Assembly: GCA_040389865.1 (NCBI GenBank)
Contig: JAZJZM010000014.1
Coordinates: forward strand, 39,531 to 103,530
Direction of reading: 5' to 3'
Length of the DNA: 64,000 nucleotides
Origin: Bacteroidota bacterium
Lineage (GTDB): Bacteria; Bacteroidota; Bacteroidia; 2-12-FULL-35-15
In this document: piece by piece, positions 38,486 through 40,894 of the stretch
Position numbering within the stretch: the stretch's first letter is position 1
How the letters are laid out: every line of letters begins with the position of its first letter
The notes under the pieces: generated by a model
Told to the model about the DNA's origin: nothing
Database searches by the model: none
The model's input: only the letters and a program-made list of their open reading frames with translations
Translations under genes and position numbers: made by a program

Positions 38486-39958
38486 TTAAAATTTCAAATA
38501 CGGCATTAAGCCATGCAAGCCTCCTTCACGGCCAAAACCGCTTTCTTTATATCCACCAAAAGGTGAAGCAGGATCGAATTTATTATAGGTATTTGCCCAA
38601 ACCACACCAGCACGCATTTTACTTGAAATATTAAATATTTTAGAACCTTTATCAGTCCAGATACCTGCAGAAAGTCCATAAGCAATATTATTCGCTTTTT
38701 CAATTACTTCTTCGATGGTGCGGAAAGTTTGGATCGTTAAAACCGGACCAAAAATTTCTTCTTGCACAATACGGTGTGATTGAGAAGCATTTAAAAATAA
38801 AGTAGGGCGGCAGAAATACCCTTTACTTGGAATAGCGCATGAAGACTGGTAAAAATCAGCACCCTCATTTTTACCTATTTTAATGTATTCTTGAATTTTT
38901 AATAATTGTTCCTTTGAATTGATGGCTCCTATATCCGTGTTTTTATCCATTGGATCACCAACAATTAAAGACTCCATTCTGTCTTTTAGTTTACGGATAA
39001 CAATATCCGCAACACTTTCCTGAATAAACAAACGGGAACCTGCACAACAAACATGACCCTGATTAAAGAAAATTCCATTAATAACACCTTCTACAGCCTG
39101 GTCGATAGGGGCATCTTCAAAAATAATATTAGCTGCTTTTCCCCCTAATTCAAGTGTTAGTTTTTTATCAGTTCCTGCAATTGATTTCTGAATCATTTTA
39201 CCAACATCAGTAGAGCCTGTAAATGCAATTTTATTGATATCGGGATGATTAACCATTGCGGCACCAGTTTTACCAGCACCAGTAATAATATTTACAACAC
39301 CATCAGGCAAACCACTATCACGAAATAATTCAGCCAATTTTAATGCTGTAAGTGAAGTTGTTTCTGCAGGTTTTAATACAACAGTATTACCGGCAGCCAA
39401 GGCAGGAGCAATTTTCCAGGCAGCCATAAGCAATGGGAAATTCCAGGGAATGATTTGTCCGGCAACACCTAATGGTTGTGGATTTCTATTTGGAAAAGCA
39501 TATTCTAATTTATCTGCCCATCCTGCATTATAAAAAAAGTGATTTGCCGCTAAAGGCACATCTATATCGCGGCTTTCACGAATACACTTACCACCGTTCA
39601 TTGTTTCGATCACAGCAAATTCACGTGCTCTTTCCTGCATCAATCTTGCAATACGGTAAATATATTTACCACGTTCTTTTGCCGAAATTTTGCTCCATTT
39701 CTCAAATGCTTTACGAGCAGACTTCACTGCTTTATCCACATCTTTTTCATCCGCTTCTGCTACTTCTGCGATCTTTTGTTCAGTAGCAGGATTTATGGTA
39801 TCGAAATATTTTTTACTGTTGGGCTTTACAAATTTCCCATCAATAAAAAGATCATATTGTTTTTGAAGAGTAACATGTTTGGTATCTTCAGGAGCAGGAG
39901 CATAGGCCCAGTCTGTTTTGAAATCCAATCCAATTTTATTTTCTTGTTTTTTGCTCAT
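38486..39958 (-). CDS. NAD(P)-dependent aldehyde dehydrogenase
   Basis: 490 aa with 'ELGGKAANIIF' (catalytic Glu) and 'FNQGHVCCAGSRLF' (catalytic Cys) blocks. Confidence 0.85.
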   Translation of the reverse strand: MSKKQENKIGLDFKTDWAYAPAPEDTKHVTLQKQYDLFIDGKFVKPNSKKYFDTINPATEQKIAEVAEADEKDVDKAVKSARKAFEKWSKISAKERGKYIYRIARLMQERAREFAVIETMNGGKCIRESRDIDVPLAANHFFYNAGWADKLEYAFPNRNPQPLGVAGQIIPWNFPLLMAAWKIAPALAAGNTVVLKPAETTSLTALKLAELFRDSGLPDGVVNIITGAGKTGAAMVNHPDINKIAFTGSTDVGKMIQKSIAGTDKKLTLELGGKAANIIFEDAPIDQAVEGVINGIFFNQGHVCCAGSRLFIQESVADIVIRKLKDRMESLIVGDPMDKNTDIGAINSKEQLLKIQEYIKIGKNEGADFYQSSCAIPSKGYFCRPTLFLNASQSHRIVQEEIFGPVLTIQTFRTIEEVIEKANNIAYGLSAGIWTDKGSKIFNISSKMRAGVVWANTYNKFDPASPFGGYKESGFGREGGLHGLMPYLKF

Positions 39959-40894
39959 TTTTTATTTTTTTGTTTTCTTTTACCCTGACAGGGGAAGTTT
40001 TGAAATCCAATCCAATTTTGTTTTCTTATTTTTTGCTCTTTTTTTTTATTTTTTTGTTTCTTTTACCCTGACAGGGTTTCAAACCCTGTTAGGCTTGAAT
40101 TAACTTAAAATTTCCGATTCTACTTTTTCCAATAAATTTTGATTTATCTGCTGATGACTAAATTTAAAATTATCAATATCCTCAAACAATCCTATCACTT
40201 CTTCCCTCTTCAATTGGGTTACCTTATCAGAAATTAAAGAATGATAGGAGGAGTATTTCCAATCTGTAATTTTTTCAACAAACCCATGATGAACAGGGTT
40301 TGAATGAATATATAAAATTAAGGATTTCAAATATTCTGATGAAGCAATTTCTTTTCTCTTGAACGAACGAAGAAATAAGCTTCCTCTTCTGCCTTGTTGT
40401 TTATTTAAAGCTTGTGAATAACCATTAAAAAAATTAGAAAACTGTTTACTAATATGAAGGCAAAAAAAATCGACATCAGTAATACCTCCTGAAAGAGCTT
40501 TAAACGCAGTTAAAGTGATATTTTCATCCGGTAATTTTTCATTCTCTTTTAAAAACTCAAAAACTTCTTTTTCCGATTTAATCTGAATAAGAAAATGAAA
40601 GTGATTCGGCATCAAACAATAGGCATAAGTGTTTGCGACAGGTGAAACAAATTCTGTAAATTTTTTCAGAAAATAAATATAGTTGTCATCATTAAAAAAA
40701 ATGGCATCGCTGCCAATTCCATGATTATAGATGTGGTAAAATTTGTCGGATTTTAATGGTTCCTGATTAGCTGCCATTTTTTTATTTCACCTCTTATACC
40801 TTGACAGGGTTTCAAACCCTGTTAGGGGTATTTTCAATACACTAAATTAATTACTCGTATTAACCCTAACAGGGTTTGAAACCCTGTCAGGGGC
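39915..40894. mobile_element. RAYT/REP unit: tyrosine HUH transposase gene flanked by REP hairpins and an 82-bp tandem duplication
   Basis: REP 'ccctgacagggtttcaaaccctgttagg' at 40066-40093 (+), 40799-40828 (+) and 40864-40894 (-). RAYT ORF at 40100-40777. Direct 82-bp duplicate of 39915-39996 at 39997-40078. Confidence 0.7.
40100..40777 (-). CDS. REP-associated tyrosine transposase (IS200/IS605-like Y1 HUH family)
   Basis: HUH motif 'LMPNHFHFLIQ', catalytic Tyr block 'LILYIHSNPVHHG'. 225 aa, flanked by REP hairpins. Confidence 0.75.
   Translation of the reverse strand: MAANQEPLKSDKFYHIYNHGIGSDAIFFNDDNYIYFLKKFTEFVSPVANTYAYCLMPNHFHFLIQIKSEKEVFEFLKENEKLPDENITLTAFKALSGGITDVDFFCLHISKQFSNFFNGYSQALNKQQGRRGSLFLRSFKRKEIASSEYLKSLILYIHSNPVHHGFVEKITDWKYSSYHSLISDKVTQLKREEVIGLFEDIDNFKFSHQQINQNLLEKVESEILS

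Follow-up and report, generated by a model that had tools for sequence, protein, structure and literature searches.

A 64,000-nt stretch of the Bacteroidota contig JAZJZM010000014.1, hereafter called the window, contains an open reading frame (ORF) of 225 aa which very probably encodes a class-2 Y1 HUH enzyme of the RAYT (REP-associated tyrosine transposase) or TnpA_REP type. The gene would be located in its own REPtron, preceded by an inverted doublet of repetitive extragenic palindromes (REPs) and followed by one more copy. As a RAYT/REP unit the locus is ordinary and well preserved, and the branch to which it belongs, centred on Bacteroidota and poorly annotated, is part of a known family. 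The features on which this assignment is based are listed below with their window coordinates; the kind of support is given in brackets.

40100-40777, minus strand: RAYT ORF, 225 aa (ORF listing, profiles, PDB, fold)
40595-40603, minus strand: codons of the HUH motif H59-F60-H61 (translation; invariant in the 59-protein alignment)
40295-40312, minus strand: Tyr motif YIHSNP (Y156...N160-P161), the class-2 'Y---NP' signature (translation; aligns to YIYINPVKHG of 4er8)
40799-40826, plus strand: REP, 22 nt 5' of the RAYT start codon (1 mismatch)
40865-40892, minus strand: REP in the opposite orientation (exact copy)
40066-40093, plus strand: REP 3' of the RAYT stop codon, with a G·T wobble when written as 'TGAC...GTTA' (exact copy)

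The ORF with its HuH and YIHSNP blocks had been pointed out in a sequence-only reading of the same DNA and was confirmed by the ORF listing and the translation. By motif and alignment, H59/H61, Y156 and N160 are the candidate catalytic residues, and N58, H59, H61, Y156, H158, N160, P161, W173 and S177 are invariant over an alignment of 59 proteins. The Y1/RAYT identity proposed in that reading was also recovered by profile searches, with scores below the curated cut-offs: the NCBIfam profile NF047646 (REP_Tyr_transpos) matched the ORF at 62 bits (E=5.7e-17; cut-off 80 bits), and the Pfam profile PF01797 (Y1_Tnp) at 18 bits (E=0.0032; cut-off 23 bits). The sole sequence relative in the PDB is 4er8, the E. 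coli TnpA_REP in complex with a REP (E=5e-4 with the single protein and 9e-7 with a profile of the 59 sequences). An AlphaFold model calculated from the 59-sequence alignment has a mean pLDDT of 92.7. When it was compared with the PDB by Foldseek, 4er8 was again at rank 1 (E=7.9e-8, TM 0.67 normalised to the target), and ranks 2-14 were occupied by IS200/IS608/ISDra2 transposases, among them 2f4f, 2xm3, 2vjv and 2a6m at E~2-3e-3 and a probability of 1.00. The HUH residues are on the predicted strand E59-66, and Y156 and N160 are on the predicted helix H147-163. In comparison to 4er8, the protein has an extra segment of ~37 aa (aa 67-103) between the HUH strand E59-66 (beta3) and the long helix H104-128 (alphaC), and a C-terminal extension of ~50 aa with three predicted helices past the invariant W173..S177. 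Its HuH-Y distance is 97 aa. Sequence and predicted fold place the window ORF in the Y1 HUH superfamily, nearest to the RAYT/TnpA_REP type.

The homologue family comprises at least 1,888 cluster representatives (90% identity) at E<1e-5. The earlier remark that such genes are rarely annotated in Bacteroidota holds for NCBI, where the homologues are mostly called hypothetical, and nearly all of them are without a Pfam match. It does not hold for JGI, where they often bear the name 'REP element-mobilizing transposase RayT'.

The 28-mer CCCTGACAGGGTTTCAAACCCTGTTAGG is present in three copies around the RAYT gene, while 0.00 copies are expected according to 100 dinucleotide-preserving shuffles. Thus, the three or more hairpins around the ORF and the inverted pair on its far side, both of which had been noticed before, are real. 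The REPs at 40799-40826 and 40865-40892 are separated by a spacer of 38 nt and constitute the inverted, REPIN- or BIME-like doublet (BIME, bacterial interspersed mosaic element). Along the gene strand, a forward and a reverse copy precede the gene (40892-40799) and a reverse copy follows it (40093-40066). As single-stranded DNA, each copy folds into a hairpin of 12-13 bp with a loop of 1-3 nt (-9.3 to -10.4 kcal/mol, z ~-4), and the doublet 40799-40892 folds into one long hairpin (-34.7 kcal/mol, z = -10.6). The arms are slightly asymmetric (TGAC vs GTTA), which results in a G·T wobble on one strand and in an A·C mismatch on the other. No further REP copies were detected in the 64-kb window with the 19-mer (3 mismatches allowed) or with a 13-mer (1 mismatch allowed), and no other repeated hairpin family exists there. 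In line with the textbook RAYT/REP arrangement claimed earlier, the doublet resembles REPIN/BIME structures, but the hairpin is devoid of the GTAG foot of textbook REPs.

The RAYT gene is flanked by deoC and by an aldehyde dehydrogenase gene (aldh). All three genes are co-directional and thus the hairpins are probably transcribed. Genome and metagenome loci compared with the window are labelled by L-numbers (L003, L040, L197 etc.). The order deoC-RAYT-aldh is kept at seven of these loci with RAYT protein identities of 60-92%, namely 92% at L197/L198, 84% at L199, 80% at L200/L201, 65% at L202 and 60% at L203. It is also kept at L040, a locus of the metagenome-assembled genome (MAG) JAIOQD01 that has ~91% identity with the window over a length of 8 kb. 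Since the gene order is conserved down to 60% identity, the RAYT is vertically inherited and is not a mobile insertion sequence (IS). In the 64-kb window there is no second RAYT copy, the gene being single-copy there.

Around the gene, the number, the spacing and the sequence of the REPs vary among the relatives examined. L197 has one doublet on either side of the RAYT gene. L199 combines an upstream doublet with an unrelated hairpin on the downstream side, and the latter is followed by one REP beside the aldh start. At L200 four REPs are located upstream (9560-9920), three of them spaced by ~85 nt, and none downstream, the RAYT-aldh gap comprising 10 nt only. The hairpin of L202 is an arm-swapped variant, and that of L203 has a different sequence, GACCTTCCAGGTTTTAAAAACCTGGAAGGTC. 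In L040 the RAYT gene (JAIOQD010000096.1, 1580-2170) is a pseudogene, in which a 157-nt out-of-frame deletion takes out the Tyr motif; here the upstream doublet is still present, though with a longer spacer, and the REP located downstream has a decayed right arm. The locus thus harbours a single-copy, vertically inherited RAYT with a REP population that is turning over. Two additional observations were made at these loci. First, L040 represents a natural 'RAYT-dead' comparison genome. Second, each of the ~85-nt-spaced REPs of L200 precedes a similar sequence (…TTACGAAATAGATTTT…), suggesting that a unit including the REP was amplified locally in tandem.

For the sequence-only reading, a lack of any HUH/Y1 profile match or a hairpin occurring at this locus only would have been refuting. 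Neither was the case, and both the observation and the interpretation of that reading are supported: the profiles match as described above, and the 19-nt core of the hairpin was found in at least 116 stretches when species-representative genomes were scanned, mostly from Bacteroidota. Nearly all matches listed are from MAGs or isolates of Bacteroidota, with several loci per assembly: at least about 20 core loci among the matches listed belong to Bacteroidales bacterium Barb4, and at least 3-4 each to JAZKBF01, JAZKBX01, JAVHPR01, JAVHPE01, CAISYK01 and JAIOQD01. Among these matches, 10 of 130 core copies lie within ORFs of at least 150 aa (92% extragenic), although ~80% of the bases of the respective loci belong to such ORFs. 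The low number of copies in ORFs despite this high coding content characterizes the element as repetitive, extragenic and palindromic. Alignment of the 130 contexts showed that the palindrome is usually prolonged to (A)ACCCTG-ACAGGGTTTCAAACCCTGT-CAGGGT(T), and GTAG adjoins the stem in none of them (0/130). The core adjoins a RAYT homologue in 9 of the 116 loci listed, which are the orthologue in L040 and eight loci with different neighbourhoods and homologues of 37-47% identity (L003, L012, L022, L025, L041, L070, L079 and L090). At the remaining 107 of the 116 loci listed, it is found without a RAYT homologue alongside. In the sister MAG JAIOQD01 (~91% nucleotide identity, syntenic), copies are present on two further contigs, L046 and L052. 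Based on the relatives, including this syntenic sister MAG, we infer that the REP is probably dispersed in the window's own genome, too.

The identical 19-nt core was also detected in anammox Planctomycetota MAGs (L020, L026, L048, L063, L068, L071, L091, L096 and L100), in Balneolaceae (L019, L083 and L093) and in Moduliflexus (L112). The homologue search of the 116 listed loci revealed no RAYT homologue beside the core in any of these. Its presence in other phyla could be due to binning contamination by Bacteroidota contigs, to horizontal transfer, or to a truly conserved recognition core. Furthermore, the REP copies of L004 and L046, which belong to two different MAGs, have a nearly identical left flank (TTTCCATATATGCTGTAGCCCC), and this similarity suggests that some dispersed REPs are old and reside at orthologous positions. 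Finally, a 43%-identical homologue at L145 (Ga0247831_1002093) is flanked by nested palindromes of 55-83 nt with stems of up to 39 bp, which are far larger than the hairpins of the window.

A further REP, in a decayed form, is part of the RAYT coding sequence:

40487-40515, minus strand: decayed in-frame REP, codons 88-97 (TLTAFKALSG) (20/29 nt match to CCCTGACAGGGTTTAAAACCCTGTCAGGG)

It is located in the extra segment between beta3 (HUH) and alphaC, and the same codons are filled by the intact hairpin CCCTGACAGGGTTTAAAACCCTGTCAGGG in the 84%-identical orthologue L199 (L199:10263-10291). In addition, the homologues L012, L022, L025, L041, L079 and L090 have a near-perfect copy of their local REP inside the reading frame, after the HUH strand. 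These in-gene REPs are translated in different frames (LTGFxTLSG vs PDRVxNPVR) and thus the shared entity is the DNA and not the peptide. In addition, 76 complete homologous ORFs from genome and metagenome loci, chosen on the Y[IVL]xx[NQ]P motif, were examined. Between HuH and Y, 27 of these 76 homologues contain a hairpin with 9 bp or more. The in-gene hairpin matched the flanking hairpin of the same locus at 14 or more of 16 nt in 12 of 23 pairs, in comparison to 38 of 506 unrelated pairings, and the matching loci include such with entirely different REPs (AACTTTCCAAAAGTTT..., ACCCGTCAGACCGCT... and AGCGAGGGCTTCGCT...).

The in-gene REP is not a new phenomenon, and we do not present it as such, since it was already published for RAYT subclass 2.4. 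Quentin et al. 2018 (PMC6006769) report the insertion of REPs into the gene itself as unique to this subclass; such REPs keep the reading frame and are found between HuH and Y, as part of a variable beta3-alphaC insertion which was modelled as peripheral with respect to the active site. Intragenic REPs in general were catalogued by Di Nocera et al. 2013 (PMC3733652).

Two other observations concern REP-like sequences in RAYT genes. At L012 (CAVXSF010000009.1), a 69-nt nested palindrome (ATCCCTGACAGGGTCC...GGACCCTGTCAGGGAT) is present at positions 256-324 and 691-759, where one copy is inside the RAYT ORF and the other spans its 3' end; as a consequence, the protein has repeated PDRV peptides and ends inside a REP. 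In the window, 13 nt of a REP arm, TTCAAACCCTGTT, are identical to the codons of (H)SNPV in the Tyr motif (40292-40304). This match is shared with L197 and L199 only, and AACCCTGT is found at the Tyr-motif site in 9 of 87 homologues. We considered whether the REP is derived from the Tyr-motif codons; since no relatives other than the two nearest ones share the match with the window, it is treated as a chance or codon coincidence.

Downstream of the RAYT gene, the sequence-only reading had suspected a rearranged start of the neighbouring gene. The rearrangement exists and is an 82-nt tandem duplication, which involves the following features:

39915-39996 and 39997-40079, no strand assigned: two tandem units of ~82 nt (direct repeat and comparison with orthologous loci)
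39983-39993, plus strand: half REP consisting of the left arm, CCCTGACAGGG, at the duplication junction
38486-39958, minus strand: intact aldehyde dehydrogenase gene (Pfam Aldedh, E=5e-165)

The direct repeat 39915-39981 vs 39997-40063 shows 87% identity. Each unit consists of the first ~14 codons and the leader of the aldh gene plus the left REP arm. The ATG is kept in the first unit (39915-39996) only, which is continuous with the aldh gene, and was lost in the second. At the orthologous loci L040, L197, L199 and L200 the duplication is absent, and its origin is therefore within the lineage of the window itself. In gene-strand direction the junction reads ...GGATTTCAAAAC followed by TTC and then by CCCTGTCAGGG, and it lies in the loop of the downstream REP. 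It joins an aldh sequence resembling the REP centre (GGGTTTGAAAC) to the arm which comes after this centre in the REP, and it directly follows a microhomology, TTTSAAAC, which the aldh coding sequence shares with the REP centre. This sequence arrangement suggests that the duplication may have arisen at the hairpin by microhomology-mediated slippage or template switching. A break made by the RAYT at the junction is possible as an alternative origin.

The promoter scan yielded background numbers (6 found vs 5.0 expected). Three terminator-like sites were detected vs 0.6 expected; one REP copy is terminator-like on the plus strand, and no REP has a terminator-like site on the coding (minus) strand. 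Rfam gave no match at gathering score, and the sub-threshold matches were miRNA-precursor models. Specifically, the region of the REP doublet (40797-40895) matched MIR477 (plant) and mir-786 (nematode) with E=5e-5 and 0.01, respectively, far below the gathering scores. A miRNA-precursor identity of the doublet was rejected as a generic artefact, because such models fit any long hairpin.

How the system may work can be proposed by analogy with E. coli TnpA_REP and IS608 TnpA. The RAYT would bind the REP hairpin in single-stranded DNA, for example in the lagging-strand template, and would recognise hairpin and foot on one strand, the G·T wobble vs the A·C mismatch making the two strands unequal. 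The HUH-bound metal and Tyr156 could cleave and rejoin the DNA via a covalent 5'-phosphotyrosine intermediate, and this cleavage and rejoining may create, move or remove REP units. The decayed in-gene REP and the 82-nt duplication are by-products of REP turnover which are visible in the window.

Several points weigh against a RAYT in its own REPtron. Both curated cut-offs were missed in the profile searches (Pfam 18 vs 23 bits; NCBIfam 62 vs 80). The other ~63 kb of the window are without any REP copy. The hairpin has no 5' GTAG/GT[AG]G foot, and the residues W94, Q95, E100, H101 and R104, with which the E. coli protein reads GTAG, correspond to F135, L136, R141, K142 and A145 in the window protein; thus, the recognition details known from 4er8 are not simply transferable. 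In L040 the REPs persist beside a dead RAYT, which implies that in the short term REPs need no live RAYT. Last but not least, the presumed activity of this RAYT clade is deduced from analogy with E. coli TnpA_REP and IS608 TnpA.

Some of these points could also be explained if the locus were a decaying, inactive relic, in which the REP array and the duplication are fossils of replication slippage and drift. The decay of the internal REP (20/29 nt), the persistence of REPs beside the pseudogene in L040 and the absence of REPs elsewhere in the 64 kb are in line with this explanation, and hairpin-promoted slippage alone suffices to produce a tandem duplication. We nevertheless regard it as very unlikely: the window ORF is full length with all invariant catalytic residues intact, its model reaches a pLDDT of 92.7, and the orthologues with 60-92% identity, which occupy the corresponding locus, are intact as well and thus speak in favour of purifying selection.

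Even less probable is an autonomous insertion sequence of the IS200/IS605 type, in which the ORF would be a self-moving TnpA and the hairpins would be its left and right subterminal ends. The fold and the catalytic motifs are indeed common to the IS200/IS608/ISDra2 TnpA proteins, and hairpins are located on both sides of the gene. On the other hand, the deoC-RAYT-aldh position is constant down to 60% protein identity, the gene is present in one copy in the window, and its ORF listing revealed no tnpB next to the RAYT gene. Moreover, TnpA_REP is the best match in both sequence and fold, the hairpin is found without the gene at 107 of the 116 loci listed, and the protein has the class-2 motif Y---NP instead of Y[IV]ENQ, which is the motif of IS200 TnpA in the division of Y1 proteins into classes by Quentin et al. 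2018 (PMC6006769).

The least credible explanation is that the hairpins serve the deoC/aldh region as ordinary regulatory palindromes, either terminators or mRNA stabilisers, with the HUH gene as a coincidental, functionally unrelated neighbour: one copy is terminator-like on the plus strand and the co-directional genes make transcription of the hairpins probable, but the same hairpin lies beside RAYT homologues in 8 unrelated neighbourhoods, its sequence co-varies with the adjacent RAYT across the loci sampled, terminator-like sites number only 3 (0.6 expected) with none on the minus strand at a REP, and copies within the RAYT frame, read in different frames (LTGFxTLSG vs PDRVxNPVR), are left unexplained by a terminator role.

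E. coli TnpA_REP (RayT/YafM) and its REP/BIME elements were reportedly studied by Nunvar 2010, Ton-Hoang 2012 and Messing 2012. The window protein shares with TnpA_REP (4er8) the monomer-type Y1 HUH fold, the HUH and Y---NP motifs and a 'DW..S' segment after the Tyr helix. In both cases, a short extragenic palindrome, which also forms doublets, is present in inverted copies on either side of a single gene. Differences are the identity of 13% in the structural alignment and the beta3-alphaC insertion and C-terminal extension of the window protein. In contrast to the E. coli REP, the window hairpin is a near-perfect palindrome of 13-14 bp with a 1-nt loop and without a GTAG foot, and the GTAG-reading residues are not conserved. 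The REPIN-RAYT systems of Pseudomonas (groups 2/3; Bertels & Rainey) are said to have one RAYT gene, which stays at a fixed locus and is inherited vertically, together with flanking REP doublets and hundreds of REPINs. The locus described here is similar in that a single-copy vertical RAYT at a fixed locus has flanking doublets and its REPs change between close relatives. It differs from the hundreds of REPINs in that, within 64 kb, REPs occur at the RAYT locus only, and relatives have at least a few each.

Among the published RAYT subclasses, subclass 2.4 (PMC6006769), which corresponds to group 4 of Bertels et al. 2017 (PMC5581495), is similar in several respects. Common features are the variable beta3-alphaC insertion with in-frame in-gene REPs, the enlarged HuH-Y distance (97 aa in the window protein vs a median of 88 in 2.4), the NHFH sequence, which fits NH[IFV]H, the three G-C pairs at the bottom of the stem, and the occurrence in Bacteroidetes with flanking repeats at modest copy number. 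The flanking 16-mers of group 4 are only moderately abundant, with ~14 per replicon (PMC5581495). However, the signature of 2.4 is NH[IFV]H / WQ / YIxNNP, and the window protein has F-L in place of WQ and YIHSNP instead of YIxNNP. In addition, the C-terminal extension with W..SS of the window clade is absent in 2.4, and the REPs of 2.4 begin with GTAG-GGG in Table S1 of PMC6006769, in which the window core is not contained. Subclass 2.6 (group 5; PMC6006769) is likewise found in Bacteroidetes. It resembles the clade by YIH[QN]NP, which is present in relatives of the window protein, by a C-terminal extension with conserved serines, and by 'atypical' flanking secondary structures which recur elsewhere in the genome. 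Unlike the window protein, which has NHFH, F-x and the beta3-alphaC insertion, 2.6 has NH[LIV]H, WQ and an insertion between alphaC and beta4. Subclasses 2.2, 2.4, 2.5 and 2.6 carry W[QE] (PMC6006769).

In the sample of 76 homologues, NHFH is present in 70 and F[QE...] at the WQ site in 60, WQ itself being found once. YIH[QN]NP is the Tyr motif in 42 of the 76 (19 with YIHNNP and 23 with YIHQNP), and W..SS is common. Assignment to one published subclass by motif signature was attempted and abandoned, because the signatures mix those of 2.4, 2.6 and 2.1 and match no published row. In its behaviour the locus resembles subclass 2.4, but it lacks several of the features listed for 2.4.

The in-gene REPs also resemble the Rickettsia palindromic elements and other intragenic REPs (PMC3733652), which are short in-frame palindromes translated as an extra peptide in permissive loops. 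They differ from the Rickettsia elements in that the host gene is the presumed mobilising enzyme and in that the insertion site is the same across the whole protein clade.

It is tempting to speculate that the Bacteroidota-centred clade with its at least 1,888 clusters is a separate RAYT subclass, in which the fixed-site in-gene REP serves as a cis site for sensing or limiting its own gene, but at present we consider this rather doubtful. If true, the signature of the subclass would be NHFH / F[QE] for WQ / YIH[QN]NP / W..SS together with the C-terminal helical extension, and the subclass would recognise near-perfect palindromes of the non-GTAG type. The in-gene REP, kept in whichever reading frame, would then be more than a tolerated passenger and could act, for example, by autoregulation or self-inactivation, with the RAYT binding or cleaving its own coding DNA.

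The news value of the locus is modest, because each of its elements had already been described. The decayed in-gene REP and the REP-centred tandem duplication are instructive side features. Furthermore, the clade slips under the curated thresholds of Pfam and NCBIfam and its members are usually named 'hypothetical', so that better profiles would help annotation. RAYT/REP systems are the best-known case of a transposase that has long been kept by its host, and to our knowledge the detailed work on them was almost all performed with Proteobacteria. The Bacteroidota lineage described here shows the same logic: the gene is fixed at one site, and the hairpins turn over around and inside it. The loci provide a comparative series, with an intact gene and a decayed internal REP in the window, an intact gene and an intact internal REP in L199, no downstream REP in L200, a replaced REP in L203 and a dead gene in L040.

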